Origin: an uncultured Oscillibacter sp.
GTDB lineage: Bacteria > Bacillota > Clostridia > Oscillospirales > Oscillospiraceae
Direction: 5' to 3'
DNA length: 64,000 bases
Assembly (NCBI GenBank): GCA_905234565.1
Contig: CAJOHW010000028.1
Location: 9,874-73,873 of the forward strand
Every line of letters starts with the position of its first letter. The first letter of the stretch is position 1. The translations under genes were made by a program, and so were the position numbers. Below, piece after piece: positions 4,945-60,988 of the stretch. The notes beneath the pieces are model-generated. The model had not been told where the DNA came from. It ran no database searches and saw only the letters and a list, made by a program, of their open reading frames with translations.

Positions 4945-4973
4945 TTGTAAAAATAGACGGTTTGTGGTATGAT
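4945..4973 (+). promoter_or_regulatory. Sigma-A-type promoter for the ATPase cassette
   Basis: TTGTAA (4945-4950), 17-nt spacer, TGgTATGAT extended -10 (TATGAT at 4968-4973), 45 nt upstream of the ATG at 5019. Confidence 0.5.
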
Positions 4974-5018
4974 ATAGGGAGAGGGTTCATATCGTTCGGA
5001 ACAGGAGGCGCTGGCACT

Positions 5019-16602: not shown

Positions 16603-19600
16603 TCACTCCGTGGCGTTTTGCCGTCCGTCCCAGGCCGGGGTGATATGCACCACCGGCGTGGACACCGCCGTGTAGATGGGTTCGCCGGTCAGGGGATCCC
16701 AGTCCTCCACGGTGCGGACCTTTTGGATCTCAATGGACACCGTCAGAGGCGAGGAACGCACGTTGCTGTACTGGTCGCACAGGTCCGCGTTGAAGGTGAT
16801 GAAGGTGCCGTCCTGGGCGTGGTCGAAGGCGAAGTCGATGGTCAGGGTCTGTCGGCCCACCTGGCTGTCGCTGAGCATGAGGCCCACGGCGGTGGCGTCG
16901 GATTCGCTCTGGACCAGGGAGCCGATGCTGATGAAGTTGCTGTACGCCCCCTCCTGCCGGGCGGAGGTCAGGATGCTGCCCCGGTCCACCTGCCGGAGGG
17001 TAGGCGGCGCGGTGGAGTCGTCGCTGTGGAAGAGGTACTCGTTGAAGGTCAGGGACACCCGGCCGCTGCACGTGTCTAAGGTCTTGGTGTTGCCCTGGGC
17101 GTCGGTGGTCTTGTCCATGGTCAGGGTGGACTGGACGGCGGTGACCACCGGGGCCTCGTTGTCCACCAGGGTCAGGGGGTAGATGCCCCGGAAGGCGTCG
17201 CCGGAACCGGAGGGGCTGCGGCCCACGGCCAGGAAGGCGTACTGGGCCCGCTCGCTCATGGGATACTCGCTGCAGTCCACCCGGTGCCGTATCCCCGGGT
17301 TCACCTCAATGCCGTGGCCCACGCCGATGATGGTGCCCGCGGTGTTGGCGGCGGAGGCCCGGATGTACTCCGCCAGCTGGTCTTTGTAGGTTTGGGTGGC
17401 GTACTTGTCAAAGACGCTGCCCTGGCCGTTGTCGTCGGTACTGGCAAGGTTGGTGGACATGGCCTGGAGGACGTTGGTAATCCCGGCGTAGTTGCGGTAG
17501 GAGGAGGGGGCCGGGATGTTGCCGCAGGGGTCGTTGTTCCAGAAGGCCCGGCTTAAGAGATTGCTCAGGGCGGAGGAGTTGTAGTTCACCACCATGAAGT
17601 CCACGGAGGCCTCCCGGTTGGTGCCGATGTTCACCACGGGGTTGGCGAGATCCAGGGTCAGGACCGGGCGGCGGACCTCCGTGGTGGTAAAGCGGTAGAG
17701 CTGCACATACCGGGAATAGGTCTGGCCCGTGCCCCGGATGACAAAGTAGGCGAAGTAGTCCGTCTCCGGAATCAGCCCTGCCACCGTCACGGACACGGAG
17801 CCGGAGGTGATGTTGGTGGAGCCCGTGCGGATGTCCGGATTGTCATACTCCGGGTTCACGATTTCCAGATACGGCGGGACGCTGACCTCAAAGGGGGCCA
17901 GGGGGATGGACTGTCCGTTCTCGTCCCGGATCTCGTTGCCGGAGCTGTCCAAACGCACATCGCTGCCGCTGGAGGGGATCTCGTCGTGGCGGTTCCAGTC
18001 CACCACGATGCCGTCCAGGTCCCGGGTGGTGATGGTGCCGTCCGCCGGGGCCAGGGCATAGAACACGGTGCCGATCCGGCTGATTTGCAGCCGCATCTCC
18101 ACGCTCACGTCCCCGGGCTCAAAGATGGGCCGCCCGGAGGAGAAGCTGGGAGCCACGGTGTCCAGGAAGCGGCGGGTCAGGCGGAAGCCCAGATCGGAGG
18201 GATTGCCCACCTCAAAGACGGATTCCTCCCGCTTGTCCTGGGCGAAGCGGTCCTCGGTGATGTTGGCGGCCAGGTTGTACAGGTTCACGGACACGCCGGA
18301 CACCACGGAGATATAGAAGTTCACCTCCTGGCTCCAGCCAGTGCGGTCGTTGTCGCCGTTGACCTCCAAAAACCGGATGGCGTACTCATAAATCAGGTTG
18401 TCGGACAGGTCCCGGAGGGCAGGCGTCTCCCCCACGCCGTTGCCGTACAGGTTAAACTGTAAGCTCTGGCCGATGCGCTGGCCCCGCATGGTGGAGGGAA
18501 TGGCCACCCGGCCAATACCGCCGGAGCCGTCCCGGCTCTGCACCCGGTACCAGCCGTTGGCGTCCGTGGCGGGGCCGTCCAGCCCTTCCATGTCCACATG
18601 ATACTCTCCCGTGGGATCCGCGTCCCGGACCCGGGTGTAGACCTCGTACTGGCAGGAGATATCCGACCAGATCAGCATATCCCAGGAGAGGCTGGCGTCC
18701 GCCTGGGCGGTAGAAATGGGCGTGGCGCTGAAACTCATGTCGATGTCCGACACCCCCACGGGATAGCTGGACACCGCTAAGCTGAGGGTGGTCAGGGCCA
18801 CCTCCGAGTCCACAGTCCGGAACCGGGGCAGCCGGGTCAGCTGCATCCGGTTGCGGGAGGAGGACACGTCGGCGATATCTTCCAGCTCAAAGTAGTAGAA
18901 CGTGCCGCTGGCCAGTTTCAGGGCGCTGGTGCCCTGGGTCAGGGGCGTCTCCACCACCGTGGGCAGCAGGATCACCAGATTGGCCTCCTCCATGAACACC
19001 CGGGCGTTGCGGAAGTCAATCACCCAGGGCTCGTTAAGGCGCTCGTTGTTGTAGCTGCGCTCCGGCACCTGAATGGGCAGTCCGGAACTGGGCCGCTCAT
19101 AGAGCCGGATACAGGCCGACAGGGCCTCTCCCAGGGCTTTGCGGGCTTCGTAGAGCTCCGAGGCGCTCTGGGCGGAGGCCACCTGCTCATAGAGATCCAG
19201 GAACCGCTGGCCCGTGGTGTAGCGCTGGATGCCCTCGTTGAACACCAGACGGACGCTGGTGTCGGCGTAGGGGTTGTTCTCCGTGTTCTCCCGCTGGCGG
19301 GTGAACTCCTGGGTGGCGGTGGGAGGGATGTTGTCCAGGGTGTTGGCGGTGATCATGCACTCGTTTTTGGGGTTGTTGGGATCGTTGGGGTTGTTGAGAT
19401 CCCCGTCGGGCCAGCGGGAGTAGTTTCCGGCGGTGTCCCGGGCCAGATACCAGATGTCATAGGCGGTCTGGGCGGAGAGACCGGAGACGGTGATGTTGAC
19501 GGGGGTATTGGCCCGGGCGCTGGAAGAGCCAAAGCGCACGGCCCCGATGCCCGTGGAGATCTCGATCTGGGCGTAGGTCTCCGTGACGGTGTCATAGCCC

Positions 19601-21750
19601 CGCTGGGGCACGGGATAGGGAGTGCCCGCCCGGACCGCCGCCCAGTAGACCGTGGCGGGTTCGTTGACGGTGCAGGTGAGCTGAATAGAGGTTGCCCGCA
19701 TGGAGGTGACGGTCATGGGAATGATAAAGACGGGAGGCGTGCCGTCCACGGTGGTGAAGGTCAGTTTCCGCACGCCGGAGCTCTGGGCGAAGTCCGCGTC
19801 TGTGAGCCAGAAGTAAATATCGTAGGTGTGGCGCTCCTCCAAACCCGTGATCTCGATGGTGGAGGGGATGCTGCGGGTCATATCCTTCTGTCCTCTGGCC
19901 AGGGATCCGGACAGGGACTGGGTCCGGAAGTCCGGCGCCGTGGGAGCGGCGCTGCTGCCGTTGTACAAGGCCCAGTAGAGGATGCAGTCCTTGTTGGTCA
20001 TGACCAGGACCTGGGACCAGAAGCGGTCGCTGGCGGTGGAGGCGGAATCATAGGTGTTGGCGCTGATGGAGGGGTAGCCGCTGGCGAAGTTGGGGACGGT
20101 GCCGTCCGGCGTGGAGAAGGACTCCACCTTAATCGCCGACCGGGTGCCCCGGGCGTCCACCATAATGGCGGAGAGGTAGTAAGAGCCTCCGGCGGTGAGG
20201 CCCGTGACGCTGGCCCGGGCCTCCGTATTGGAGGCGGTCAGGCGCACGGAGCCGCTTTTCAGGGCCTTGGAGCCGTAGGCGGAGGGGGAGATCAGCTCCT
20301 CCTCGTTGATGGACCCGTCGGCAATGCCGCTGACGGCCCAGTACACGGTGCCCGCCTTGTTTCCGGAGAAGATGGCCCGGCAGTTGGTGGGGGCCACGTT
20401 GTCTACCCGGGGATAGCCCGCTAAGAGCCGGGGATCCTCCGACGCCTCCGCCCCCTTGGAGGCGTCCATGCTCTCCCGGGCCACGTTGGAGGTGATGCCG
20501 GGCCGGATCTGGATGTTGTCCGGCAGCATGGCCACGGTGGTGCCGGTGGTGGTGATGTTGACGGTGTCAATGTCTCCCGCGCCGGTGACGGCGGTGGCGG
20601 TGTCTAAGTTCAGCTGCTTGACGGTGGCGTTGGTGTCAATGGCCAGGCTGGAGCCTGCCCCGTCCTCGTCCATGGTCAAGACCTGGGCGGTGCCCGCCGC
20701 CATGCGCACGGTACTGCCCGGGGTCCGGTTGACAACAGTTTCCAGGTTCCCGGTGAGAGCGAAACTGTCCCCGGAAGCGCCCTCTAAGGCCACGTTCAAA
20801 AGCCCCGATCCCGTGGGGGTCCGGTCCTGAAGGAAGGCGCTGGTGCGCACGGAGGTGTCGTGGATGGAGGTGGTGCCCTCCGCCCGCAGGGACAGGTACT
20901 GTCCGGTGATGCTGTCCACCTGCAGCTTGTCCGCGGAGACGTTCCGCAGCACCACGCTGTCATCTCCGGCCTCGGCCTCGCCGGTGCCCGCCACCACGAT
21001 GTTTCCAAGAACCCGGACGTTTTCCAACGTCAATCCCGCAAGCCCCAGCCCTCCGGTGACGTACAGGTCCCCGGCCACGGTGGTGTTGCGCAGGGTGGTG
21101 TCGGGGGTGGCGATGGTGAGGTTCCCCGCCACCTGGTCCAGCTCATAGGTGCCCGGCTCCTGGATCAAGGTGCCCAGGGCACGGTAGAGCAGGATCGCCA
21201 TAGCGCCCCGGGTGATGTACGCCTCGGGGCGGAAGGTGCCGTCCTCATAGCCCGCGATGAGGCCCTTTTCCACGGCGGCTTTCACATAGCCCTTGGAGTA
21301 GGGGGCGAAGCGGTTGCCGTCGGTGAACTCCGTCACCTCTCCGGGGACGGTGTCCAGACGCATATTCTTGGCAAGCAGGGTCATGGCCTGCTGGCGGGTG
21401 AGAAAATCGTTGGGGGCCGCGGTGGAGGCGGTGGTGCCGGTGAAATAGCCCACGTTGTAGGCGATGGCGATGTCGTCGGCGTACCAGGCCCCGGGGGTCA
21501 CGTCCTTAAAGGGGTGCTCGCCGACCTTGTCATAGCCGTAGGCACGGTTGATCATGGCCACGAACTGGGCCCGGGTGACCATGCGCTCGGGGTGGAGCTG
21601 CCCATCGGCGTAACCGTTGACCACGCCCCAGCCGTTGAGCTTCTCCAAGGGAATGTCATAGGGTTCGGCCCGAACCCCCGCCGCCAGCAGCGCCGCCGCC
21701 AGCACACAGGTACAAAGAAGGGCCCCGGCCCTCCGGAAAAATCTGCCCAT
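16603..21750 (-). CDS. S-layer/SLH-anchored giant surface protein (1715 aa)
   Basis: ATG at 21750 (MGRFFRRAGALLCTCVLAAALLAAGVRAE). Three N-terminal SLH domains (LNGWGVVNGYADGQLHPERMVTRAQF..., FKDVTPGAWYADDIAIAY..., FTDGNRFAPYSKGYVKAAVEKGLIAGYEDGTFRPE). These are followed by a beta-helix-like region and FN3-like modules. The 71-aa upstream extension in the track is not coding-like. Confidence 0.85.
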   Translation of the reverse strand: MGRFFRRAGALLCTCVLAAALLAAGVRAEPYDIPLEKLNGWGVVNGYADGQLHPERMVTRAQFVAMINRAYGYDKVGEHPFKDVTPGAWYADDIAIAYNVGYFTGTTASTAAPNDFLTRQQAMTLLAKNMRLDTVPGEVTEFTDGNRFAPYSKGYVKAAVEKGLIAGYEDGTFRPEAYITRGAMAILLYRALGTLIQEPGTYELDQVAGNLTIATPDTTLRNTTVAGDLYVTGGLGLAGLTLENVRVLGNIVVAGTGEAEAGDDSVVLRNVSADKLQVDSITGQYLSLRAEGTTSIHDTSVRTSAFLQDRTPTGSGLLNVALEGASGDSFALTGNLETVVNRTPGSTVRMAAGTAQVLTMDEDGAGSSLAIDTNATVKQLNLDTATAVTGAGDIDTVNITTTGTTVAMLPDNIQIRPGITSNVARESMDASKGAEASEDPRLLAGYPRVDNVAPTNCRAIFSGNKAGTVYWAVSGIADGSINEEELISPSAYGSKALKSGSVRLTASNTEARASVTGLTAGGSYYLSAIMVDARGTRSAIKVESFSTPDGTVPNFASGYPSISANTYDSASTASDRFWSQVLVMTNKDCILYWALYNGSSAAPTAPDFRTQSLSGSLARGQKDMTRSIPSTIEITGLEERHTYDIYFWLTDADFAQSSGVRKLTFTTVDGTPPVFIIPMTVTSMRATSIQLTCTVNEPATVYWAAVRAGTPYPVPQRGYDTVTETYAQIEISTGIGAVRFGSSSARANTPVNITVSGLSAQTAYDIWYLARDTAGNYSRWPDGDLNNPNDPNNPKNECMITANTLDNIPPTATQEFTRQRENTENNPYADTSVRLVFNEGIQRYTTGQRFLDLYEQVASAQSASELYEARKALGEALSACIRLYERPSSGLPIQVPERSYNNERLNEPWVIDFRNARVFMEEANLVILLPTVVETPLTQGTSALKLASGTFYYFELEDIADVSSSRNRMQLTRLPRFRTVDSEVALTTLSLAVSSYPVGVSDIDMSFSATPISTAQADASLSWDMLIWSDISCQYEVYTRVRDADPTGEYHVDMEGLDGPATDANGWYRVQSRDGSGGIGRVAIPSTMRGQRIGQSLQFNLYGNGVGETPALRDLSDNLIYEYAIRFLEVNGDNDRTGWSQEVNFYISVVSGVSVNLYNLAANITEDRFAQDKREESVFEVGNPSDLGFRLTRRFLDTVAPSFSSGRPIFEPGDVSVEMRLQISRIGTVFYALAPADGTITTRDLDGIVVDWNRHDEIPSSGSDVRLDSSGNEIRDENGQSIPLAPFEVSVPPYLEIVNPEYDNPDIRTGSTNITSGSVSVTVAGLIPETDYFAYFVIRGTGQTYSRYVQLYRFTTTEVRRPVLTLDLANPVVNIGTNREASVDFMVVNYNSSALSNLLSRAFWNNDPCGNIPAPSSYRNYAGITNVLQAMSTNLASTDDNGQGSVFDKYATQTYKDQLAEYIRASAANTAGTIIGVGHGIEVNPGIRHRVDCSEYPMSERAQYAFLAVGRSPSGSGDAFRGIYPLTLVDNEAPVVTAVQSTLTMDKTTDAQGNTKTLDTCSGRVSLTFNEYLFHSDDSTAPPTLRQVDRGSILTSARQEGAYSNFISIGSLVQSESDATAVGLMLSDSQVGRQTLTIDFAFDHAQDGTFITFNADLCDQYSNVRSSPLTVSIEIQKVRTVEDWDPLTGEPIYTAVSTPVVHITPAWDGRQNATE

Positions 21751-21757
21751 AGACACC

Positions 21758-22420
21758 TCACTTTCTGGCATTCTGGATGGATTCGATCTGTACGTTGAAC
21801 ACGGCCTCCTGCAGCATGGCCTCCTGGTCATGGATGAGATCCGGGAACCGGGCGGCGTACCGCCGGACCGTTCCGGCCTCCTGCCCGATGCCCGCAATGG
21901 CGGCGCTGACCCCGGCGGGGGGATCCTGGACCGGATCGGCGCGGAGAATCTCCGCGTCCACAAGCAGGGGTCCCTCGGAGGTGATGGGGATCACCAGTTC
22001 CGGCACCTCTCCCGGCTCAAAGGGGGCGGCGCAGTAGAAGGCGATGCCCCCGCAGCTTAAGTCAATGGACCGGTACCGCCACCGTCCCCCCTCCTTGGGA
22101 TAGGCCAGGCTCTCAAAGTTCACGGGCATCCGGAAGTGCCGCCGGACCTGGGAGCCCAGCTTCCGCATGGGTTCCAGCACCACCTGGTTGCCCCGGCGGA
22201 AGATCACCCGTCCCAGCATCACCGCCGTGGAGATCCCCGGGGGCACCACCTGGATGACCTCCGCGTTCACCACGCTGTCCGTCTGGCCCTCCACAATCCG
22301 GATTTGGAGGTTGGCGTCTTCCAGGGAGTTTTCCAGCTCCCCCTTGGCCAGGATGTGGGAGTTGGCGTCCATCAGCAGATGGACCACCCCGGCCCGCTTC
22401 TTCTTTCCAAAACCAAACAT
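21758..22420 (-). CDS. PilZ-domain c-di-GMP receptor (YcgR/flagellar-brake-like)
   Basis: RRHFR (RxxxR) followed by SIDLSCGGIAF (DxSxxG). ATG at 22420, 4 nt after the upstream stop. The stop lies 7 nt before the SLH gene ATG. Confidence 0.8.
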   Translation of the reverse strand: MFGFGKKKRAGVVHLLMDANSHILAKGELENSLEDANLQIRIVEGQTDSVVNAEVIQVVPPGISTAVMLGRVIFRRGNQVVLEPMRKLGSQVRRHFRMPVNFESLAYPKEGGRWRYRSIDLSCGGIAFYCAAPFEPGEVPELVIPITSEGPLLVDAEILRADPVQDPPAGVSAAIAGIGQEAGTVRRYAARFPDLIHDQEAMLQEAVFNVQIESIQNARK

Positions 22421-24453: not shown

Positions 24454-26565
24454 ATGAACGATATGCTGGAAGCCTACCTGTTTGAAATGCACTCCCTGCT
24501 GGAGCAGCTGGACGATCTGGTCCTTGCCGCCGAACAGGCCCACACCTTTTCCCAGGACGATGTCAATGAGATCTTCCGCATCATGCATACGATCAAAGGC
24601 TCCTCCGCCATGATGGAGTTCAACTCCCTCATGACCATTGCCCACCGCATTGAGGACCTGTTCTATGTCATCCGGGAAAAGACCATGGACGCCATCCCCG
24701 AGGAGCGCAAGGGAGAGCTCTTTGATCTGATCTTCCACTCCATCGACTTCTTCCGGGATGAGATCGGAAAGGTGGAGGGCAATCAGCCCCTTAATACTTC
24801 TATCGACTCATTCTTAGATAAGATTAATAGCTTTGCCAACAAAATTTCCGGCGGAGCGTCCGTGCCCCAGGAAGAGGAGGCCCCCCAGGAAGCCCCCAGC
24901 CCCGAGGCCGCCCAGTACGCCAGCGCCGAGTTCCCCTACGCCCTGCGGGTGGTGTTCGACGAGGGCGTGGGCATGGAGAACCTGCGGGCCATGATGCTGG
25001 TCAACGCCGTGAAGGACTTCTGCGAGGAGAGCCAGTTCGACTTCTATCCCCCGGACGTGCAGCTCAACCCCGAAACCGCCAACTTCATCATTGACAACGG
25101 CTTCTTCCTCCGCTTCCGCTCCGCGGCGGACCGGGAGGAGGCCCTGCCCGCCGTGCGGGACAACGGGGCCGTGAAGGAGTTCCAGACCTTTACCGCCCCC
25201 GCGCCGGCGCCGGAGCCGGAGAGCGCGGCGGAGGAAGCGGAAGAATCCCTTCCCGAGGAACCGTCGCCCCAGGCGGAGGCTCCCGTCCAGGAGGCCCCCC
25301 GTCCGGCGGTGCAGGCCCCCCAGACGACGGCCCAGACCCAGCAGTCCGCCGCCGCCGCTGCCGCCGCCAAACAGGCCCATGTGAAAGAGAGCCTGATCTC
25401 CGTGTCCCTGGGGAAACTGGACGCCCTTATGGCCGTGGTCAGCGAGATCGTCATCACCGAGGCCCAGGTCACCGCCTCTCCGGACCTGCGGGGGCTGAAG
25501 CTGGATAACTTCACCAAGGCCGCAAGACAGCTGCGCTCCCTGACGGACAACCTCCAGGACGTGGCCATGTCCCTGCGGATGGTCCCCGTGTCCAGCACCT
25601 TCCAAAAGATGAAGCGCATCGTCCGGGATATGAGCAAGAAGCTCAATAAGGAGACGAACCTGACCCTCATCGGCGAGGACACCGAGGTGGACAAGACCAT
25701 CGTGGACAGCATCTCCGATCCCATCATGCACATCGTGCGCAACTCCATGGACCACGGCATCGAGAGCAGCCAGGCCGAGCGCATCGCCGCCGGGAAGGAC
25801 CCCGTGGGCAAGATCACCCTGGCCGCCCGGCAGACCGGCAGCGAGGTCATCATCGAAATCAGCGACGACGGCGCCGGCGTGGACGACGACGCCGTGCTGA
25901 ACAAGGCCATCCGCCAGGGCCTGGCCACTCCCGGCGTGGAATACTCCCACAAGGACATCCTGAACTTCCTGCTCATGCCGGGCTTCTCCACCAACACCGA
26001 GGTCACGGAGTACTCCGGCCGGGGCGTGGGCATGGACGTGGTCAAGAGCAACGTGGAGAGCGTAGGCGGCACCGTCACCATCACCAGCACCCGGGGCAAG
26101 GGCATGACCACCACGCTGAAGATCCCCCTGACCATGGCCATTCTGGACGGCATGGAGGTCTCCGTGGGCAAGTCCATCTTCACCGTGCCCATCAGCAACA
26201 TCCGCCAGATCTTCAAGGCTTCGGATATGCACATCATCCAGGACCCCACCCACGGCGAGATGATCAAGATCGTGGACAACTTCTACTCCATCGTCCGGGC
26301 CAAGGACTTCTTCCGCATCGACAGCGGCGTGGACAACTTCGACAACGGCGTGCTGCTGTGGGTGGAGTCCGGGGACAACTCCTTCTGCCTGTTTGTGGAC
26401 GCCCTCATCGGCGAGCAGCAGGTAGTGGTCAAGCCCCTGCCGGACTATGTGAACAACTTCGGCATCAAGGATTCCGGGATTTCCGGCTGCACGATCCTGG
26501 GCGACGGCAGTATCAGCATCATCCTGGCCGTTGAGAACATCTACACCGCCCAGGACAACATCTGA
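24454..26565 (+). CDS. cheA: Chemotaxis histidine kinase CheA
   Basis: ATG at 24454 after ggaaggag. HPt (FRIMHTIKGSSAMM), N-box HIVRNSMDHGIE, G1 DDGAGVD, G2 GRGVGMDVV and a C-terminal CheW-like domain. Confidence 0.92.
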   Translation: MNDMLEAYLFEMHSLLEQLDDLVLAAEQAHTFSQDDVNEIFRIMHTIKGSSAMMEFNSLMTIAHRIEDLFYVIREKTMDAIPEERKGELFDLIFHSIDFFRDEIGKVEGNQPLNTSIDSFLDKINSFANKISGGASVPQEEEAPQEAPSPEAAQYASAEFPYALRVVFDEGVGMENLRAMMLVNAVKDFCEESQFDFYPPDVQLNPETANFIIDNGFFLRFRSAADREEALPAVRDNGAVKEFQTFTAPAPAPEPESAAEEAEESLPEEPSPQAEAPVQEAPRPAVQAPQTTAQTQQSAAAAAAAKQAHVKESLISVSLGKLDALMAVVSEIVITEAQVTASPDLRGLKLDNFTKAARQLRSLTDNLQDVAMSLRMVPVSSTFQKMKRIVRDMSKKLNKETNLTLIGEDTEVDKTIVDSISDPIMHIVRNSMDHGIESSQAERIAAGKDPVGKITLAARQTGSEVIIEISDDGAGVDDDAVLNKAIRQGLATPGVEYSHKDILNFLLMPGFSTNTEVTEYSGRGVGMDVVKSNVESVGGTVTITSTRGKGMTTTLKIPLTMAILDGMEVSVGKSIFTVPISNIRQIFKASDMHIIQDPTHGEMIKIVDNFYSIVRAKDFFRIDSGVDNFDNGVLLWVESGDNSFCLFVDALIGEQQVVVKPLPDYVNNFGIKDSGISGCTILGDGSISIILAVENIYTAQDNI

Positions 26566-28150: not shown

Positions 28151-29242
28151 ATGGCTAAGAAAATCCGCGTACTGGTGGTGGACGACTCCATCCTGGCCAG
28201 AAAGGTCATCATGGACGGCCTGGGCGCCATTCCAAACCTGGAAGTGGTAGGGTACGCCATCAACGCAATCGACGCGAAAAGCAAGGTCAAACAGCTCCGG
28301 CCCGATGTCATGACGCTGGACGTGCAGATGCCCGGCATGACGGGGCTGGATTTTTTGAAATCCTTCCTGCCGGAGTACCCCCTGCCGGTGGTGCTGGTGT
28401 CCGCCCTGAACATGGGGGCCTTCGACGCCCTCCACGCCGGGGCGGTGGACTTCGTGCGAAAGCCCGACCGGGACGTGAGCACCGGGGACTTTATTGCCAC
28501 GCTGGCCCGCAGCGTCCAGGACGCCTCCCGGGCCAAGGTCCAGCGTCCCGCAGCGGCGGCGGCGGTGGAGGCCGGCCCCCCCGCTCTGGGGGGCACCATC
28601 GCCGGACGCACCGTCATCGCCCTGGGGGCCTCTACCGGCGGCACGGAGGCCACGCTGGAAGTCATGAAGCGGCTGCCGGCGGACATCCCCGGCATGGTCA
28701 TCGTGCAGCATATGCCTGTGGGCTTTACGAAGATGTACGCCGAGCGGCTGAACAAGCTCTGCCGCATGGAAGTGCGGGAGGCCAAAGAAGGAGACGAGGT
28801 GAAGCGGGGGGTGGCCCTCATCGCCCCGGCGGACCTTCAGACCCGGGTGGTCCGATCCCCTCTGGGGGGCTACCGGGTGAGCTGCACCCACGGGGACCGG
28901 GTCAGCGGCCACCGGCCCAGCGTGGACGTGCTGTTCCAGTCCATGGCGGACAACGTCCGCTGCCAGATGGTGGGGATCATCATGACCGGCATGGGCCGGG
29001 ACGGGGCCTCCGGGCTTCTGGCCATGCGGAAAAAGGGGGCCTATACCATCGGCCAGGACGAGGACACCTGCGTGGTCTACGGAATGCCCCGGGCCGCCTA
29101 TGAGGACGGAGCCGTCATGGTCCAGGCCGGGTGCACTGCTGCGGCGGCTGCGGGGCGGACGATAGAAAAGCTGCGGCTGAATTCAGTATCTCTATATCGT
29201 TTGAAAGGATGTGTCTATAATGCCCGAAAAATTGTCCGTTAA
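28151..29242 (+). CDS. cheB: Chemotaxis protein-glutamate methylesterase CheB (3' end runs into a repeat-bounded insertion)
   Basis: ATG at 28151 after aaaggagggg. REC domain (VLVVDDS...DVMTLDVQMPGMTG). Catalytic motifs GASTGGTEA, VIVQHMPVGFT and MTGMGRDGA. Confidence 0.88.
   Translation: MAKKIRVLVVDDSILARKVIMDGLGAIPNLEVVGYAINAIDAKSKVKQLRPDVMTLDVQMPGMTGLDFLKSFLPEYPLPVVLVSALNMGAFDALHAGAVDFVRKPDRDVSTGDFIATLARSVQDASRAKVQRPAAAAAVEAGPPALGGTIAGRTVIALGASTGGTEATLEVMKRLPADIPGMVIVQHMPVGFTKMYAERLNKLCRMEVREAKEGDEVKRGVALIAPADLQTRVVRSPLGGYRVSCTHGDRVSGHRPSVDVLFQSMADNVRCQMVGIIMTGMGRDGASGLLAMRKKGAYTIGQDEDTCVVYGMPRAAYEDGAVMVQAGCTAAAAAGRTIEKLRLNSVSLYRLKGCVYNARKIVR
29037..29135 (+). repeat. 99-bp perfect direct repeat, copy 1 (inside the cheB 3' end)
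   Basis: gggcctataccatcggccaggacgaggacacctgcgtggtctacggaatgccccgggccgcctatgaggacggagccgtcatggtccaggccgggtgca is identical to 30756-30854. Confidence 0.9.
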
Positions 29243-30755
29243 AATTATCTCGAAAAACGCACCCTCCCCCCGGAACTGTAAAGGTATAACAACTTACGGA
29301 TCCGCGAATTGTGATCACATATCTTTTCCTCTGGAAGACACCCGCGCTCTTATGGACTTGAGAGGCAGCTTTGCGATGGTTGTGGAGAGCCCGGATTCTG
29401 TCACGCTGATCTGTGACCCGATCCGGAGTATTCCTCTGTTTTACAGTGTAACCCATAAGGGAATTGTCGTAGGGTGCCACGGCGTGGCTGTGGCGGAAGA
29501 GTGCGGGATGGAACTGGACCAGGAGGCTGCGACAGAATTTCTTTACGCAAGATATGTCACAGGAATCCGTACGCTTTTTAAGAATGTTTACGCCGTCAAT
29601 CCAGGTGAGATTCTCCGTATTTCCAGGGAAGACGGCTCTGTCAGCCGCCGATTTTACTATGAACTTCTCTATTGCATGGAAGGGCGTGAGGAGGTCCCGG
29701 TTTCCCGGCTCATTGAGGAATTTGACGCCTGTTTGGAGGATGTTTTCAGAGATCTTGCCAAACGCCTCAACGGAAGGCCCGTTTTAATTCCTCTGAGCGC
29801 CGGGTGCGATTCCCGTACCGCCGCAGTGATGTTCAAACGGATCGGATATCCGGATGTGGCCTGTTTCTACTTTGGCAGGAAGATTAACCGGGATGCCGCT
29901 ACATCCAGAGCCATTGCCGAAAACCTGGGCTATCCCTGGGTTTTGGCGGAAACCACAAACGAGCGGTGGGGGAAACTGTACCAGTCCGATGTCTATTCCC
30001 AGTATTTGGAATACAGCTGTAACGGAAACAGCATGGGGACGGCTCGCACTTTTTTAGGCCCCCTGATTGTGAAGGATCGCTTTCAAGACCGTGTGGTGGT
30101 GCCGGGGCACACTCTGGATGTTGAGATGGGCAGCCATCTGCCGGCTTGGAGCCGCGAAAAAGAGATTTCACGGGAAATGCTGACGGCATACAATATCCAA
30201 TGGCATTATTCCCTGAGACTGCATCCGGAGAAATGCGCCGCCTCTATCCGCCGGTGGTCGGAAAAGCTGCCGGAAAAAATGGACGCCGCCGCCGCCATTC
30301 GAGAGTTTCAGCATTTTGAATGGCTCAACCGCCAGCCAAAGTTTATTGTCAACGAAGTGCGTAAGTATGAATTTTTTCAGTTTGCCGGTTGGGAGATCCC
30401 CTTCTGGGACACGCGGGTCTGCGACTTCGCAACAAAACTTACGCCCTTCCAGCTGGAAGGCCGCAACTTCCAATACCGGTATATGGAGAAGATTGTCGAT
30501 CCCTTTGCCGGAATCCAGCAGACATACCCGGCTGCGGGGGAAGTTCCGGAAAAAACCAAGACTTCCCGGTTCCAGGAACTCAAAGCATGTCTGCGCAGAT
30601 ACCGCGATTCAGGTTTGTCGCTTTATGGGCATATGAGTTTTCCAGAATACTTGAACTGGGTCCGCAAGTGCGGCACATATTTCAATATCCATGCCAAAAC
30701 AGCGGAAGACGGGTTGAACAGGATTCTCGCAAAGTATCACCTTCCCATGCCATAA
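29220..30755 (+). CDS. Asparagine-synthetase-family (PP-loop ATP-pyrophosphatase) enzyme lacking the N-terminal Cys nucleophile
   Basis: GSFAMVVESPDSVTLICDPIRSIPLFY (AsnB N-domain-like) and PVLIPLSAGCDSR (SGGxDS-type PP-loop). The N-terminus is MPEKLS, not MCG. Start is ATG 29220 or GTG 29211. The gene is AT-rich (41 and 44% G+C in two hand-counted 100-nt samples). Confidence 0.7.
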   Translation: MPEKLSVKIISKNAPSPRNCKGITTYGSANCDHISFPLEDTRALMDLRGSFAMVVESPDSVTLICDPIRSIPLFYSVTHKGIVVGCHGVAVAEECGMELDQEAATEFLYARYVTGIRTLFKNVYAVNPGEILRISREDGSVSRRFYYELLYCMEGREEVPVSRLIEEFDACLEDVFRDLAKRLNGRPVLIPLSAGCDSRTAAVMFKRIGYPDVACFYFGRKINRDAATSRAIAENLGYPWVLAETTNERWGKLYQSDVYSQYLEYSCNGNSMGTARTFLGPLIVKDRFQDRVVVPGHTLDVEMGSHLPAWSREKEISREMLTAYNIQWHYSLRLHPEKCAASIRRWSEKLPEKMDAAAAIREFQHFEWLNRQPKFIVNEVRKYEFFQFAGWEIPFWDTRVCDFATKLTPFQLEGRNFQYRYMEKIVDPFAGIQQTYPAAGEVPEKTKTSRFQELKACLRRYRDSGLSLYGHMSFPEYLNWVRKCGTYFNIHAKTAEDGLNRILAKYHLPMP

Positions 30756-30868
30756 GGGCCTATACCATCGGCCAGGACGAGGACACCTGCGTGGTCTACG
30801 GAATGCCCCGGGCCGCCTATGAGGACGGAGCCGTCATGGTCCAGGCCGGGTGCATGCGGGGCCGATAA
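30756..30868 (+). pseudogene. Duplicated promoterless cheB 3' fragment (repeat copy 2 plus 14 nt to a stop)
   Basis: Encodes AYTIGQDEDTCVVYGMPRAAYEDGAVMVQAGCMRGR* with no start codon. The first 99 bp are identical to 29037-29135. Confidence 0.8.
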
Positions 30869-30925: not shown

Positions 30926-30954
30926 TTAATTTTTTGGCCCAATGGACCGATGAA
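30926..30954 (+). promoter_or_regulatory. Sigma-28-type promoter upstream of flgM
   Basis: TTAA-N16-ACCGATGA. Confidence 0.4.
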
Positions 30955-31043
30955 TAGTATGAATGATATTTTATGACCCGCCTCCCTGGCGGCGGATTGT
31001 AAGGATAGCATACCTCAAAATGTGGAAAAGGGGGCGGACCCTG

Positions 31044-36859: not shown

Positions 36860-37798
36860 TTACCGCTTGTGGTGGGGGCGCAGCTTCACCTTTTCACAGG
36901 CGTTCATCACCTGGGTGGTGACGGCGGCGCTGTACCGGCCCTCGTACATGGAGAGCAAAGGCATCACATCCCGGTTGGAGGTGGCCACGTACTTGGAGGG
37001 CAGGTTGGACAGGGCAATAGCAGTTACATCCACTTTACAGCGGTTGCAGGTACACATCCCCATGAGCTTCATATACTTTTCCGCCTTGGCCTCTACCAGG
37101 GCCTGGGTCAGATTGTAGCAGATGAACTCGTCGGGGTGGGGCTCGGGCTTTTTCGCGGCTTGCGGTGCGGCGGGAGCCGGGGCCGCGGGGGCCGCCTGGG
37201 GCGCAGCGGGAGCCGGAGCCACGGGGGCCGTCTGAGGCGCGGCAGGAGCCGGAGCCACGGGGGCCGCCTGAGGCGCAGCGGGAGCCGGTACCACGGGGGC
37301 CGCCTGAGGCGCAGCAGGAGCCGGGGCCGCAGGCGCGGCCTGGGGCGCAACAGGAGCCGAAGCCATGGGCGCGGCCTGGGTGACGACCGGAGCCGAAGCC
37401 ATGGGCGCGGCCTGGGGCGCAACAGGAGCCGGAGCCGTGGGCGCCGCCTGGGTAACAACCGGGGCCGGAGCCGTGGGCGCCGCCTGGGGCGCGGCGGGGG
37501 CCGGAGTTTCCGGCGCAATGGGCGTAAATTCAGGGACTGACGGCTCCTGGCTCTCCGGCGGCTCTTCCTCTGCCACAGCCTTCTTCCCGCCTCTGGCGGG
37601 CTTCCGGCTGCCGAACAGTTCCTCCACCAAGGCGTCCCGGATTTGCTCCTGGGTGGCCTTGTCGTCCAAGCGCTGCACAGTGGGTTCCTCGGCGGCATGG
37701 TCTCCCGACAGGGAGGCGGGGTCCGTCAGCAGGCTCAGGACCCGGGCGGTCTTGCTGCTCTTACCGCCCTTCCCGGTTTTCGATCCGTTTTTTGGCAT
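36860..37798 (-). CDS. ComFB-domain protein with basic N-terminus and long Ala/Pro-rich repeat linker
   Basis: The C-terminal ~95 aa carry the ComFB Cys pattern (YNLTQALVEAKAEKYMKLMGMCTCNRCKVDVTAIALSNLPSKYV). The N-terminus is MPKNGSKTGKGGKSSKTARVLSLL. The middle has ~10 copies of a 12-aa AP-rich unit. Confidence 0.7.
   Translation of the reverse strand: MPKNGSKTGKGGKSSKTARVLSLLTDPASLSGDHAAEEPTVQRLDDKATQEQIRDALVEELFGSRKPARGGKKAVAEEEPPESQEPSVPEFTPIAPETPAPAAPQAAPTAPAPVVTQAAPTAPAPVAPQAAPMASAPVVTQAAPMASAPVAPQAAPAAPAPAAPQAAPVVPAPAAPQAAPVAPAPAAPQTAPVAPAPAAPQAAPAAPAPAAPQAAKKPEPHPDEFICYNLTQALVEAKAEKYMKLMGMCTCNRCKVDVTAIALSNLPSKYVATSNRDVMPLLSMYEGRYSAAVTTQVMNACEKVKLRPHHKR
37150..37515 (-). repeat. ~36-bp tandem repeats (about 10 copies) encoding the PAPAAPQAAPVA linker
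   Basis: Reiterated ggagccggagccRYgggSgccgcctgRggcgc units are visible in the DNA. The protein reads APTAPAPVVTQA/APMASAPVAPQA/APAAPAPAAPQA... Confidence 0.75.
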
Positions 37799-42811: not shown

Positions 42812-42845
42812 GCCCGCCCCCGGAAACGAGGGCGGGCTGTCTTTG
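42812..42845 (+). terminator. Rho-independent terminator after the fliT-like gene
   Basis: gcccgccc-ccggaaacga-gggcgggc followed by tgtcttt. Confidence 0.55.
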
Positions 42846-43200
42846 GCAGACAGCCAACTCGCTCTATAAGTCTTTCGCCTCCCAGGTCTTTGGCAGACAG
42901 CCAACTCGCTCTATGAGTCTTTCGCCTCCCAGGTCTTTGGCAGACAGCCAACTCGCTCTACAAGTCTTTCGCCCCCCAGGTTTCTGCGACGGCAACGCAG
43001 GAAGCGCAAAATCTCCCCTGTCCGTCTTTGGCAGACAGCCAACTCGCTCTACAAGTCTTTCGCCTCCCAGGTCTTTGGCAGACAGCCAACTCGCTCTACA
43101 AGTCTTTCGCCTCCCAGGTCTTTGGCAGACAGCCAACTCGCTCTATAAGTCTTTCGCCTCCCAGGTTTCTGCGACGGCAACGCAGGGCTGCCGTCCCTAA
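42839..43200. repeat. Tandem array: two blocks of 3 x 47-bp units, each block ending in a gtttctgcgacggcaacgcag hairpin tail
   Basis: Units at 42839, 42886, 42933 and at 43024, 43071, 43118 (gtctttggcagacagccaactcgctctaYaagtctttcgcctcccag). Tails at 42980-43023 and 43165-~43200. Same family, in reverse orientation, as 51276-51455. Confidence 0.9.
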
Positions 43201-43211
43201 GAGAACCCCTT

Positions 43212-44207
43212 TCACGGCGATATAATCCACAGAGGTGCGCCGTCGTAGCGGCTGGCGGACAGCTCCGAGATGATGAGATCCGGATCCCACACCTCCACGC
43301 TGTTCTCCCGGCTGTTGGGGTCCGCCACCAGCACCCCGCCGTCCTCCGTGGTGCCGTGGATGATGATGAAGTGTCCGCTTTTGGTGAAGTGGCCCCGTCC
43401 CATAAGGGCCACGGCATAGGCCCCGCCCTTCACCGTGTCGTACAGGGTCTGGCCGTCCAGTTGGGCGGGGGACTGGCAGGAGAAGCCGTAGTGGTCCGCC
43501 GCCCCCTGGATGATGGACAGGTAGGAGCCGCTGGAAGGGGCGGCGTATCCCGCGTTGGAAGCCCACTGGGCGGCGGCCTCCGGCGTCAGGGCCTTCCCCC
43601 GGAAGGTGGACACCAGCATGGCCACCACCACCGGGCCGCAGCCGTGGGTGCCGATGGGGTCCCGGCCAAAGAGCTTGTCCGCCCAGGCGTCGTCCTTCTG
43701 GTTGTAGTAGACGAAGTACTTCCGGTTCCCGCCGGTGAGCAGTTCAAAACTGCCGCTGTGTACCAGTTCCGTCACCGCCGCCGGGGTGGTATCCTGGGGG
43801 GCGGTGTCCTCTGGCAGCTGGCCGCTCTTCATGAGCTTTTTCAGCCGCCGCTCCTCCGCCTTCCGGGCACGCTCCTCCTCCCTGGCCCTGCGCTTTTCCT
43901 CCCGGACGCGCAGCCGCTCCTGACGCTGGCGCTCCCGCTCTATCCGCAGTTCCTCCGCCCGCAGACGCTGGGCCTGGGCCAGTTCCTCCCGGAGATCCGC
44001 CTGATCCGACAGCCACTGGGCATATTGGCCGGAAATATCCTTGACTTGTGTACGCGCTCCGTGGTATAAAATACGTACAGGCGTGACAATCCGCTCGTAG
44101 AGGGCCGGATCCTGGCTCCGGCAGGCGGCCAGCTCCGCGGCACATACGCACAGCGCCGCTAAGAGCACGGTCATGATGAAGTTTTTCACAAGGCTTCGCT
44201 CGTTCAT
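43212..44207 (-). CDS. Membrane-anchored papain-like (C39-like) cysteine peptidase-domain protein with a highly charged coiled-coil linker
   Basis: ATG at 44207 (SD GAGGTG). TM segment FIMTVLLAALCVCAA. ER-rich helix RAEELRIERERQRQERLRVREEKRRAREEERARKAEERR. C-domain with THGCGPVVVAMLV (Cys) and GHFIIIHG (His). Confidence 0.6.
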   Translation of the reverse strand: MNERSLVKNFIMTVLLAALCVCAAELAACRSQDPALYERIVTPVRILYHGARTQVKDISGQYAQWLSDQADLREELAQAQRLRAEELRIERERQRQERLRVREEKRRAREEERARKAEERRLKKLMKSGQLPEDTAPQDTTPAAVTELVHSGSFELLTGGNRKYFVYYNQKDDAWADKLFGRDPIGTHGCGPVVVAMLVSTFRGKALTPEAAAQWASNAGYAAPSSGSYLSIIQGAADHYGFSCQSPAQLDGQTLYDTVKGGAYAVALMGRGHFTKSGHFIIIHGTTEDGGVLVADPNSRENSVEVWDPDLIISELSASRYDGAPLWIISP

Positions 44208-44323
44208 GGATGCACCTCGGGGCGGTACGCGCCAAGTTCGGAATGATACGCATATCAGTATAACAAACCCGGCGGGATTTGTAAAGTGACAATCCCATTT
44301 CAACGGGGCAGGAGGCGGCTTGG

Positions 44324-45028
44324 ATGCCAACCATTCGACTGGAAAACGTGGCGAAAATCTACAAGAGCAAGACCCGGGAGAACGCCGCGATCAAAAACGT
44401 GAATCTGACCATCGAGCAGGGGGAGTTCGTGTTCGTGGTGGGGAGCCGGGGCGCCGGAAAGAGTACGCTGCTGGATGTCATCGCCGGGGTGCTGAAGCCG
44501 GAACAGGGCCAGGTGTTCCTGGACGACGCGGATCTCTACAAGCTCAGCCCCCGGGAGAGCGAGAAGAAGCGGGCCTGTATCGGCCGGATCGCCCAGGAAT
44601 CGGAACTCAACCGCATGGAGACGGTGTACGACAACCTGTCCACCATGAAGCGGGTGGGACTGTTCCGGAAGAAAGTGGTGGACGAGAGCCTGGCGGACAA
44701 GGCTCTGGGCATCGTGGGGATGCCGGGGACAGGAAAAACCTTCCCCCGGGACCTGACGCCGCCGGAGTGCCGCCGGATCCAGGTGGCCAAGGCGATTTTG
44801 AACAGCCCCGCCATTTTGATGCTGGACGACTTCACCATGAACATGGACGAGGACACCATCTGGGATATGCTCCACCTGCTCATGGAGCTGAACCGGCGGG
44901 GGACCACCATCCTCATGGCCACCAATTCCAGCTATGTGGTCAACGTCATGCGCCGCCGGGTGGTGACCCTGGCGGACGGACGGGTGGTAGGCGACGTGAA
45001 AAAAGGCAAATACGGATTTATAGGCTAA
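44324..45028 (+). CDS. FtsE-like ABC ATPase with degenerate signature, Walker B and H-loop motifs; no FtsX partner
   Basis: Collinear with FtsE (Walker A GSRGAGKST retained). LSGGEQQR is replaced by LTPPECRR, DEP by DDF and ATH by ATN. Confidence 0.75.
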   Translation: MPTIRLENVAKIYKSKTRENAAIKNVNLTIEQGEFVFVVGSRGAGKSTLLDVIAGVLKPEQGQVFLDDADLYKLSPRESEKKRACIGRIAQESELNRMETVYDNLSTMKRVGLFRKKVVDESLADKALGIVGMPGTGKTFPRDLTPPECRRIQVAKAILNSPAILMLDDFTMNMDEDTIWDMLHLLMELNRRGTTILMATNSSYVVNVMRRRVVTLADGRVVGDVKKGKYGFIG

Positions 45029-45040: not shown

Positions 45041-46933
45041 ATGGCGGAATCCAGAAGAAAAACGGCGGAGGCAAAGAAATCCGCGGAACCCAAGAAAATC
45101 CCGGAGCCGGAGAAGGACCAGGACTGCGTGTTCGCCCTGGACATCGGTACCCGGAGCGTCATCGGCGTGGTGGGCCGGGTGGAGGAGGGAAAACTCCACG
45201 TGCTGGCCATCGAGAAGGAGAACCACGGGCAGCGGGCCATGCTGGACGGGCAGATCGAGAACATCGCCCAGGTGGCGGAGGTGGCCCGGGACGTGGCCGC
45301 CCGGCTGGAAAAGCGGACGAAACTGCGGCTGAGCCGGGTGTGTCTGGCGGCGGCGGGACGGGCGTTAAAGTCCGAATCCGCCTCCTTTACCCTGGAACTG
45401 CCCGCCACCCAGCCCATTACGGACGAGAACATCAGCCATTTGGAGGCCGGGGCCGTGTCCGAGGCGGAACAGGCCGTGGCGGAACAGGCGGGAGGCTCCT
45501 CCGATCAGTATTATATGGTGGGGTATACCGTCATCGGCTACCGCATCGACGGCTATCCCATGTCCAGCATCCGGGACCACAGCGGCAAAGTCCTGGAGGC
45601 GGAGGTGGTGGCTACCTTCCTGCCCCGGGGGGTGGTGGACAGCCTGTACGCCGTGGTGGGAAAACTGGGCTTAGAAGTGGCCAGCATGACGTTGGAGCCC
45701 ATCGCCGCCCTGAACGCCGCCATTCCCGCCGATATCCGGCTTTTGAACCTGGTGCTGGTGGACATCGGCGCGGGCACGTCGGACATCGCCGTGTGCCGGG
45801 ACGGCAGCGTGGTGGGCTACACCATGGCCACCATCGCCGGGGACGAGATCACGGAACTGCTCATGCGGTCCCTGCTGGTGGACTTCGACACCGGGGAACA
45901 GATGAAAATGGCCCTGAACGACGACAAGCCCATCTCCTATACGGATATTCTGGGACTGCCCCATGAGGTTCCGGCGGCGGAACTGCGGGAACTGGTGGCC
46001 CCCTCCGTGGAGACGTTGGCCCAGGAGATCTCCAAGCGGATCCTGGATCTGAACGGGCGGCTGCCCTCCGCCGTGTTCCTGGCGGGCGGCGGGTGCAAGC
46101 TGGCGGGACTGCGGGAGCGGGTGGCGGAGGCGCTGAAAATCGACCCCGCCCGGGTCACCACCGCCGGGAACCACTTCCAGCGCAACTCCTTCGCCGAGGA
46201 CTACAACCTCAACGATCCGGAGTACGCCACCCCTCTGGGGATCGCCATCTCCGCCGGACTGGGCCTCATCAACGACAGCTATATCATCCTCCTGAACGGG
46301 GAACCCGCCAAGCTCTTCCGCAGCGGTACCCTCCTGGCCCGGGACATCCTCATGATGAACGGCTACGGCTACAACGAGATGATGGGCCGGACGGGATCCA
46401 ACCTGTCCTTTACCCTGAACGGGGAGCGGAGACTGTTCCGGGGGGCCATGCCCGTGCCGCCGGTGCTGCTGATCAACGGGGAGCTGGCCGCTTTGACGGA
46501 CGTGGTCCGGGCCGGCGACAACATCGAATTCACTCCCGCCCGGGCGGGCGCCGACGCCTCCAAGCGCCTCATTGACCTCCTGGGGGAGGACTTCATGGGC
46601 AGCGTGACGGTGAACGGCGCGGCGGCGGCGTTGGAGGACGTGATTCACACCGGGGACGACATCTGGGCCGACGCCCACGCCGAACCCGCCCCGCCGGAAC
46701 CCCAGAAATCCGCCGACGCCCCCAGCGGCCCGGAGATGCGGGTGAATCTGAACGGGGAAACCGTGATTCTCTTTGGAAAACCCAACGCCGAACCCTATTA
46801 CCTCATGGATCTGCTGAAATACTCCGGCATCAACCTGGACCACCCGGACAAGGTGGTGGAGATGACCGTCAACGGCCAGCCGGGGCTGTTCAGCCAGAAG
46901 ATCCGGGAGGGTGACAGCGTGGTCATCCGGTGA
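45041..46933 (+). CDS. FtsA/actin-like ATPase with four C-terminal beta-grasp-like (xLNGE) repeats
   Basis: ALDIGTRSVIGVVG (phosphate 1), VLVDIGAGTSDIAV (phosphate 2), FLAGGGCKLAGL (adenosine). C-terminal repeats: ILLNGEPAKLF, FTLNGERRLF, VTVNGAAAAL, VNLNGETVILF...REGDSVVI. Confidence 0.7.
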   Translation: MAESRRKTAEAKKSAEPKKIPEPEKDQDCVFALDIGTRSVIGVVGRVEEGKLHVLAIEKENHGQRAMLDGQIENIAQVAEVARDVAARLEKRTKLRLSRVCLAAAGRALKSESASFTLELPATQPITDENISHLEAGAVSEAEQAVAEQAGGSSDQYYMVGYTVIGYRIDGYPMSSIRDHSGKVLEAEVVATFLPRGVVDSLYAVVGKLGLEVASMTLEPIAALNAAIPADIRLLNLVLVDIGAGTSDIAVCRDGSVVGYTMATIAGDEITELLMRSLLVDFDTGEQMKMALNDDKPISYTDILGLPHEVPAAELRELVAPSVETLAQEISKRILDLNGRLPSAVFLAGGGCKLAGLRERVAEALKIDPARVTTAGNHFQRNSFAEDYNLNDPEYATPLGIAISAGLGLINDSYIILLNGEPAKLFRSGTLLARDILMMNGYGYNEMMGRTGSNLSFTLNGERRLFRGAMPVPPVLLINGELAALTDVVRAGDNIEFTPARAGADASKRLIDLLGEDFMGSVTVNGAAAALEDVIHTGDDIWADAHAEPAPPEPQKSADAPSGPEMRVNLNGETVILFGKPNAEPYYLMDLLKYSGINLDHPDKVVEMTVNGQPGLFSQKIREGDSVVIR

Positions 46934-46984
46934 CATTCGGTGATATTCGCCGCCAGGGCGGTCAGAGTGGGAGGATAGGACGCC

Positions 46985-47754
46985 ATGCCCAAGGAAAAGA
47001 AACCCAAGAAGGAGAAGAAACCCAAGAAAGAGAAGCCCAAAAAGGAAAAGAAGCCCAAGAAGGAGAAACCGCCCAAAAAAGAGAAACCCAAGAAGGAAAA
47101 AAAGCCAAAAAAGGAAAAGCCCAAAAAGGAACCCCAGATCGATCCCGAAACCGGGGAACCCATAGAGGAAAAGAAGGGGCTGAACCCCCTGTTCATCATT
47201 CTGCCGGTCCTGCTGATCGTGGCGGGCGGGGCGCTGTTCTTCCTGCTGCGGATCCGGCCCATGCTGGCGGCCCGGGAACAGCCCCCGGAGGACCCCGCCG
47301 CCGTGGAGGAACAGGAGGAGACGCAGCCGGAGGAGGAAACGCCTTCGGAACCGGAGGAGGAAGAGACGCCCCCGGAGGAGGAATCCCCCTTCCCCGTGGT
47401 GGAGACCCCCTACGTGGAGGGCAATATGACCACGGGAGAGGCGGTCCGCCGGAGGCCCTGGGCCTGTCCGGGGAGAGTTTGGGGGAGTATGAGCTGATCC
47501 CCTCGGACCACGTGGTGATGGTGGACGGCATGATGTGCATGGAGGTGCAGATCTACGGCAGCGGCTCCGCCGGAACCAACGACATCGCCGGTACCTTCCT
47601 GCTGACCCGGGGCAGTCCCCGGAAGCTGTTCCGTTTGGACGAGAACACCGGGGAGATTGAGGAGGTATCCCTGTCCTTCCTGCGGCCCCCGGCTCCGGAA
47701 CCGGTGCCGGAAGAAGGGGAGGAAGTGCCGGAGGAGGAAGATGCAGAGGATTGA
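46985..47754 (+). pseudogene. Lys-rich / single-TM / acidic protein, reading frame broken near 47445 (frameshift or sequencing error)
   Basis: Frame A (46985-47497): MPKEKKPKKEKKPKKEKP..., TM segment LFIILPVLLIVAGGALFFLL, acidic tail. Frame B continues coding-like from ~47445 (PPEALGLSGESLGEYELIPSDHVVMVDG...EEEDAED*) to 47754. Confidence 0.45.
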
Positions 47755-51216: not shown

Positions 51217-51275
51217 CGTTCGCTTGCGTTGCCGGATCCTACACCCATTGGGTTGCCTGAGCCTGCACCTGCCTA

Positions 51276-60975: not shown

Positions 60976-60988
60976 GGGGAGGGGCGAG

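Follow-up and report, generated by a model that had tools for sequence, protein, structure and literature searches.

We analysed a 64,000-nt stretch of the genome of an uncultured Oscillibacter sp. (GCA_905234565.1, contig CAJOHW010000028.1; hereafter the window), in which a chemotaxis and flagellar locus reads cheA, cheW, cheR, cheB, a 511-aa gene here called X, a 3' fragment of cheB, flgM, flgN and flgK. Gene X lies between two copies of the 3' end of cheB and, to judge from its composition, is clearly foreign and horizontally acquired. A preliminary description of the same DNA had reported a perfect 99-bp direct repeat flanking an AT-rich insertion. The window's contig was compared with three further assemblies of the same species (L001, L002 and L090; n = 4 in all), which are separate ENA records found through the protein clusters of X and CheB and differ in contig naming (k141_, k87_, and a scaffold with a 55-mer end). 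Two of the four assemblies are fragments of ~1.7 kb and two span the whole locus. The features are as follows, with positions within the 99-bp repeat counted as R1 or R2 positions 1 to 99 according to the copy.

24454-26565: cheA, upstream of cheW, cheR and cheB
28151-29242, plus strand: cheB of this strain, 363 aa (NCBIfam CheB, 3.1e-104; Pfam Response_reg and CheB_methylest)
29037-29135, plus strand: repeat copy 1 (R1), base 2 of cheB codon 296 to codon 328, 99/99 identical with 30756-30854
29135-29136, plus strand: site of a 17-bp deletion (AGGAGATCGCCGGGGTG lost) that frameshifts cheB; the 17 bp are kept in L001, L002 and L090
29136-29164, plus strand: remaining native cheB 3' sequence of copy 1, as far as the TA of the stop codon, from the alignment with L002
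29163-29165, plus strand: native cheB stop codon TAG, out of frame in this strain
29165-30755, plus strand: foreign insert proper, 1,591 bp, consisting of a 55-nt leader and gene X
29220-30755, plus strand: gene X, 511 aa, ATG at 29220 and TAA at 30753-30755, a predicted PP-loop adenylating enzyme of the AsnB/beta-lactam-synthetase fold
30756-30854, plus strand: repeat copy 2 (R2), a dead duplicate of the cheB 3' end, 99/99 identical with R1
30855-30868, plus strand: cheB tail remnant of copy 2, TGCGGGGCCGATAA, 30 bp shorter than copy 2 of L002 and lacking a GGA codon
30933-30962, plus strand: putative sigma-28-like motif upstream of flgM, TTAATTTTTTGGCCCAATGGACCGATGAAT, kept in the alignment with relatives L003/L005
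31044-31343, plus strand: flgM (Pfam FlgM), the next gene after cheB in relatives L003-L007 and L010-L046

The duplicated cheB end

The identity of 29037-29135 with 30756-30854 was confirmed at all 99 positions. This is the sole long exact dispersed repeat of the window, and a chance origin is excluded. The preliminary description was also right that the repeat is a duplicated cheB 3' end and that a single gene in the 1,620 bp between the copies ends exactly at the second one, the TAA of X abutting it directly. Two of its boundaries had to be moved. Reconstruction from L002 gives an ancestral duplication of ~145 bp that begins at base 2 of cheB codon 296 and takes in the TA of the stop codon (the last 47 cheB codons plus stop), and in the L002 alignment the homology between the two cheB ends runs out at ...CGATA. 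The 99 bp are only what is left after deletions of 17 bp and 30 bp in the two window copies, and the exact length of 99 arises because both deletions begin directly after ...GGGTGCA (junctions GGGTGCA/CTGCTGCGG for the 17-bp deletion and GGGTGCA/TGCGGGGCC for the other). Likewise, the first 29 bp of the interval 29136-30755, which had been assigned to the insert as a whole, are native cheB, and the insert proper starts at 29165.

Copy 1 is intact in L002. Its copy 2 continues after the X stop with R positions 1-23, R positions 81-99, AGGAGATCGCCGGGGTGCTGCTGCGGCGGCTGCGGGGC and CGATAA, followed by the flgM upstream region, and is therefore without R positions 24-80 (57 bp). Wherever the cheB ends can be aligned, the copies are identical at every base. 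One GGA codon (3 bp) is missing from copy 2 in both long assemblies (the window and L002); in the window, copy 2 lacks a further 30 bp and copy 1 lacks 17 bp, the loss from copy 1 being found in the window only. The related CheB proteins P0048 and P0067, and the DNA of L003/L005, end in GGR* as copy 1 does, so that copy 1 carries the native tail and copy 2 the decaying one, with a codon lost. On the same evidence we rejected the possibility that the copy 1 tail (...GGACGATAG) is donor-derived, which would have spoken for Campbell-type integration. Hairpin-driven deletion was rejected as well, as the 146-nt cheB end folds no better than shuffled sequences (z = +1.2); the 17-bp and 30-bp deletions share their left breakpoint without clear microhomology.

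The window CheB is normal over residues 1-328, and its final 35 aa are a frameshifted tail whose frame runs to 29242. Directly after R1, L001, L002 and L090 continue with AGGAGATCGCCGGGGTG-CTGCTGCGGCGGCTGCGGGGCGGACGATAG, of which the window lacks the first 17 bp; with these restored, CheB has 343 aa and ends ...VQAGCKEIAGVLLRRLRGGR*, like the C-termini of related CheB proteins. That cheB reads into the insert, with the tail quoted in the preliminary description, is correct, but the read-through is due to this strain-specific deletion and not to the duplication, the sister strains having CheB of 343 aa. Both the REC and the methylesterase domain were found in the window protein, and the region of the C-terminal helix appears to be altered in this strain. 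The sister-strain CheB P0043 (343 aa) aligns end to end with the Salmonella CheB structure (PDB 1A2O). The stretch of 1A2O that aligns with the CheB C-terminus we take to be its terminal helix; the corresponding 15 C-terminal residues are intact in L002 and swapped for the 35-aa frameshift tail in the window. The window CheB is identical to database protein P0166 and window X to P0165, both recorded on an 86,445-bp NCBI/ENA contig. This makes for a point of annotation: the tail of the deposited 363-aa CheB is unlikely to be a novel one and more probably reflects a frameshift variant or, possibly, an error in the sequence. The orphan cheB 3' fragment reported downstream of X is present (ending ...GCMRGR*, stop at 30866-30868). 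An open reading frame (ORF) at 30389-30868 was considered as its translated form and rejected: it overlaps X in another frame and has no supporting evidence.

The foreign gene X

The 1,620-bp interval between the repeats has 51.6% G+C compared to 62.5% for the window, the lowest value among 1,248 sliding segments of 1,620 nt. The foreign, AT-rich character given in the preliminary description is thereby upheld, but its 100-nt samples of 41% and 44% G+C are local minima and not the mean (100-nt segments inside the interval span 38% to 62%). Gene X itself has a G+C content of 0.516 and a third-position value (GC3) of 0.59, compared to a GC3 of 0.83-0.91 in cheA, cheW, cheR, cheB, flgN and flgK. 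The 55-nt leader is AT-rich (G+C 0.37) and carries a Shine-Dalgarno-like AAAGGA. No promoter or terminator was called between cheB and X, so that X is presumably transcribed by read-through from the che operon. The motif at 30933-30962, which is sigma-28-like on our own reading of its bases and not by a tool, lies 3' of the insertion scar and would thus be undisturbed by the insertion. A scan of the whole window against Rfam gave one tRNA at 53040 and no other structured RNA.

In protein searches X forms one cluster of 99% identity, with the next best sequences at no more than 48%. Its homologs (41-48% identity; one of them, P0002, is annotated as belonging to a Lachnospiraceae metagenome-assembled genome, MAG) occur in polysaccharide clusters, where the neighbouring genes encode pyruvyl transferases, a Wzx flippase, FrhB-like proteins and glycosyltransferases. 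X is full length compared with them, and its C-terminus has the native length. A Pfam search with X itself gave no match, and the NCBIfam matches to AsnB-type models were weak and all far below the cut-off (35 bits vs 817, eps_aminotran_1). A profile of the X family matched asparagine synthetases, beta-lactam synthetase, carbapenam synthetase and CarA in the PDB (9B6C, 1JGT, 1CT9, 1Q15), and the AlphaFold model of X (pLDDT 91.5) gave 1MBZ (E = 2e-14), 1Q15, 7YLZ and 1CT9 as top Foldseek matches. The PP-loop SAGCDS (SxGxDS) is present, with S193, G195, D197 and S198 invariant in the family. The N-terminal Cys nucleophile of AsnB is absent from X, which begins MPEKL and whose alignment to AsnB models starts at about position 115.

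Going by the modelled two-domain fold and the PP-loop, X is a member of the AsnB/beta-lactam-synthetase superfamily (N-type ATP pyrophosphatases). Because the PP-loop is kept and the N-terminal Cys is lacking, X is predicted to be an ATP-dependent amide- or ring-forming enzyme and not a glutamine-hydrolysing AsnB. It shares the two-domain AsnB fold and the PP-loop with the glycan enzymes of the AsnB family (WbpS/WbqG; PMC7468200) and with the beta-lactam and carbapenam synthetases (1JGT, 1Q15), and shares with beta-lactam synthetase the absence of the nucleophile. AsnB-like enzymes amidate sugar acids in glycan pathways (WbpS; PMC7468200); X, by contrast, is here separated from its usual partner genes and scores below the NCBIfam cut-offs. 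The host has a Wzy_C-type protein and a polysaccharide pyruvyl transferase of its own (56420-57937 and 60908-62098), and SLH-domain proteins are encoded at 9395-11536 and 16603-21963. As a pyruvyl transferase natively flanks X homologs and the host encodes one, X could act on a pyruvylated polymer of the host.

Distribution and decay of the insertion

Both novel junctions (cheB tail to leader; X stop to R positions 1-23) were seen in all four assemblies of the species, as was X. With both junctions recurring in four independent assemblies, the insertion is very unlikely to be an assembly artefact, a possibility that the preliminary description had wished to see excluded. L002 is a 63-kb MEGAHIT contig that has ~40 genuine mismatches with the window in 21 kb (~99.8% identity outside two misaligned repeat regions). 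The two fragments measure 1,677 bp (L001) and 1,709 bp (L090, contig name with k87). L001 opens with a 55-mer and L090 with an 87-mer, both ending ...CTGCGGGGC, the last base common to both copies of the cheB end; such starts are the outcome of a de Bruijn graph if a stretch is present twice. Both fragments stop at R position 23, the point at which L002 has its 57-bp deletion; the L001 and L090 metagenomes thus probably contain copy 2 in both its full-length and its deleted form. No circle can be closed from the 1.7-kb contigs (L090 extends from R position 51 to R position 23).

The cheB-flgM interval was compared as well, as proposed earlier: the four same-species assemblies carry X, and related species keep cheB-flgM without it. 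In the nearest other species, an Oscillospiraceae MAG from goat reticulum with 83% CheB identity, flgM-flgN come directly after cheB, and none of ~25 further related cheB-flgM-flgN loci, mostly annotated as Oscillospiraceae or close relatives, has X, cheB again being followed by flgM. Between the end of cheB and the start of flgN the relatives have 470-770 nt and the window 2,209 nt. Within the species, the 90%-identity cluster of CheB comprises the 343-aa and 363-aa forms only, both on X-bearing contigs, and no empty-site CheB allele was found in the protein collection. Exact scans for the species-specific flank GGAGGCAGAGCGGGGAGATACGCAATTTC gave no match in the JGI metagenomes or the GTDB species representatives, nor did a protein-guided scan of the JGI metagenomes for X. 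An insertion carried by every known genome of the species, with no empty site found, is at odds with a recent or strain-specific event; judged by these sequences, it is lineage-specific yet took place before the sampled strains diverged.

The 21 kb compared between the window and L002 contain four indel sites, and three of these lie in one or other copy of the cheB end (P about 1e-5). The fourth is a 36-nt tandem array (~9 copies, 37167-37506) in a minus-strand ORF (36860-37798), where the window is longer than L002 by 72 nt (two units), a difference that points to a length-variable repeat protein. Of the differences in gene X between window and L002, 6 are nonsynonymous and 2 synonymous; the corresponding counts for 16 flanking genes are 3 and 25 (Fisher P = 0.001). 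The changes in X across the four alleles cluster at codons 272-302, 380-390 and 423-429. Clusters of mostly nonsynonymous substitutions occupy 30357-30504 in the window and the equivalent of 30035-30124 in L090; this suggests that the alleles may be mosaic or contain short recombination tracts. On our reading, X is probably under relaxed constraint, a near-neutral passenger, and the cheB pseudo-fragment is probably undergoing deletional decay.

Origin and meaning of the insertion

The locus looks like an old insertion scar and not like an active mobile element. Neither an integrase nor a transposase is encoded in the insert, in the 10 kb to either side or in 20 further large ORFs of the window, in line with the preliminary description. 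It had also excluded a transposase-made target duplication on grounds of length, and we agree: a duplication of ~145 bp stands against the short 2-15 bp expected of a transposon or insertion sequence, there is no transposase, and the insert has no terminal inverted repeats (best score 6 vs a null of 6.5 ± 1). An integron cassette does not fit either, with no integrase in the window ORFs tested and the X stop abutting R2, which leaves no room for an attC site.

The reading we favour, with a confidence that lies just past the halfway mark, is a single ancestral, recombinase-independent insertion in the cheB stop codon, with duplication of the target, that is now decaying. For the manner of joining, given that picture, illegitimate joining is our choice at slightly less than an even chance. 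In the ancestor of the species, a promoterless foreign segment (the 55-nt leader and full-length X) from a polysaccharide-biosynthesis cluster of a lower-GC donor would have been joined between the TA and the third base of the cheB stop codon. Its far end would have been joined ~145 bp upstream, at cheB codon 296, whereby the last 47 codons and the stop were duplicated, cheB was kept intact upstream of X, and a dead copy came to lie between X and the flgM promoter. The recipient joints, staggered by 145 bp, could have been made by microhomology or template switching, or by double illegitimate recombination of incoming DNA, with no transposase or integrase behind them. Vertical inheritance and decay would have followed, with 3 bp gone from copy 2 in the window and in L002, a further 30 bp in the window and 57 bp in L002, and the 17-bp deletion in the live copy of this strain would frameshift the C-terminal helix of CheB.

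Illegitimate joining is favoured because the insert consists of X alone, because the identity of the copies suggests self-duplication, and because the site is unused in relatives. The locus resembles known illegitimate joining of incoming DNA in having a short foreign segment without mobile-element machinery and joints that need few identical bases, but a target duplication of 145 bp is not its usual outcome. Several other points weigh against the reading. With a best homolog of 48% identity, there is no donor sequence in which to look for microhomology at the joints. Both joints coincide with stop codons (cheB TA/G; X TAA/GGG), which would not be predicted of a random illegitimate event and suggests a more ordered process or else selection out of many events. 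Diversifying selection or allele exchange, and not neutrality, could lie behind the clustered substitutions in X, and the common left breakpoint and the indel hot spot in the repeats could each stem from continuing recombination between the copies in place of passive decay. The same end product would result from a single crossover with a circle bearing the cheB end. Finally, the species is known from four assemblies only, two of them 1.7-kb fragments.

The strongest of the alternatives, a serious rival though to our mind a good deal less likely, is the Campbell-type or homology-anchored integration offered in the preliminary description: a circle or anchor DNA with the cheB 3' end and X would have entered by a RecA-dependent single crossover, and the repeats may allow excision and re-integration. 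Direct repeats of a host segment around foreign DNA are the classical product of this process and are found here (99 bp exact, ~145 bp reconstructed), and 99-145 bp suffices for RecA-dependent recombination. The indel hot spot in the repeats would also fit, and transformable bacteria are known to undergo homology-facilitated illegitimate recombination (PMC6382021). The repeat and insert assemble as separate, repeat-bounded 1.7-kb contigs in two samples; these are equally the de Bruijn outcome of a chromosomal repeat, however, and their ends do not overlap into a circle. Moreover, the repeats enclose only the leader and X and nothing of a replicon or backbone, so that integration of this type is possible but a circular intermediate is not required by the data. 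It presupposes that X had already been joined to the species' own cheB end, which moves the problem of origin one step back; since the copies agree at every aligned base, a diverged donor did not supply them; and the missing empty-site allele in the protein collection likewise counts against it. Compared with integrated suicide plasmids and 'pop-in' duplications, the locus is alike in its direct repeats of a host segment, its intact upstream copy and its being resolvable in principle (excision via the repeats is possible in principle), but it has no vector or replicon, a single promoterless gene and eroding repeats, and it is common to all known genomes of the species.

A decayed site-specific element, similar to a cis-mobilizable element (CIME), appears improbable. 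Here an integrase would have targeted the cheB 3' end with a replacement end carried along, and everything but X and the att-like repeats would have been lost. The locus does have the hallmark of 3'-end integrators (the 3' end of the target duplicated as attL/attR-type repeats, the gene restored upstream, the dead end on the far side). A block of 145 bp of identity is long for an att site. CIMEs have lost their integration and transfer genes and kept attL and attR (PMC5704250), and the absence of an integrase and a cargo gene of foreign composition are shared with them. No integrase was found among the ORFs tested in the 64-kb window, however, and neither a related integrase-bearing element nor recurrent use of the site is seen, the ~25 related cheB-flgM-flgN loci being without insertion at the cheB end. 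X also lies flush against both repeats, which would need one or two very precise internal deletions.

We give still less credence to the idea that the repeats form a recombinase-independent switch, in which a promoterless 1.7-kb cassette pops in and out of the cheB stop codon, toggling X expression and remodelling the CheB C-terminus; the repeat indels with common breakpoints would then be the footprint of repeated imprecise cycles. Least probable of all is that an assembly artefact or strain mixing produced the whole repeat-insert-repeat path or, failing that, just the two deletions to which the length of exactly 99 bp is due: assemblers commonly use a k-mer size of 99, the window derives from a metagenome-type contig, both deletions begin at the same base, and the ends of L001 and L090 at R position 23 indicate mixed variants in natural samples, but the junctions recur in three separate ENA records with different contig naming, a full R2 after X requires reads from X into the repeat past position 23, and de Bruijn assemblers cannot invent deletion junctions absent from the reads. 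An artefact is very unlikely for the insertion itself and conceivable for the two window-specific deletions.

Some further features of the window may be recorded. A second low-GC patch at ~4150-5700 (0.52-0.56 in 1,620-nt segments), with an AAA_15/AAA_21 ATPase ORF at 4962-6410 and no flanking long repeat found, may be another acquired (defence-type) islet. Seven tandem 47-nt units (42839-43186; also a 185-nt period, 96%) lie between two minus-strand ORFs, one of which encodes a Peptidase_C39_2 protein (43212-44330); the array is not a CRISPR. A 102-nt tandem duplication (51264-51455, 96-97% identical) is situated just 3' of a gene for a methyl-accepting chemotaxis protein (49389-51137). Lys/Pro/Glu-rich coding repeats of 15-18 nt (KKEKKP-like, 46987-47131) occur in the ORF 46930-47754, which adjoins an FtsA/PilM-like gene (45041-46933).

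The locus represents a natural case of one foreign gene captured in a conserved chemotaxis/flagellar operon without mobile-element machinery, in which an unusually long target duplication (~145 bp) preserved the host gene. The four assemblies, two of which span the locus, show the decay of the scar, with deletions focused on the repeats and the passenger near-neutral. The event is of a known type and of modest novelty, and it opens no new question; if excision were shown, the locus would provide a simple model for repeat-mediated gain and loss of a gene.

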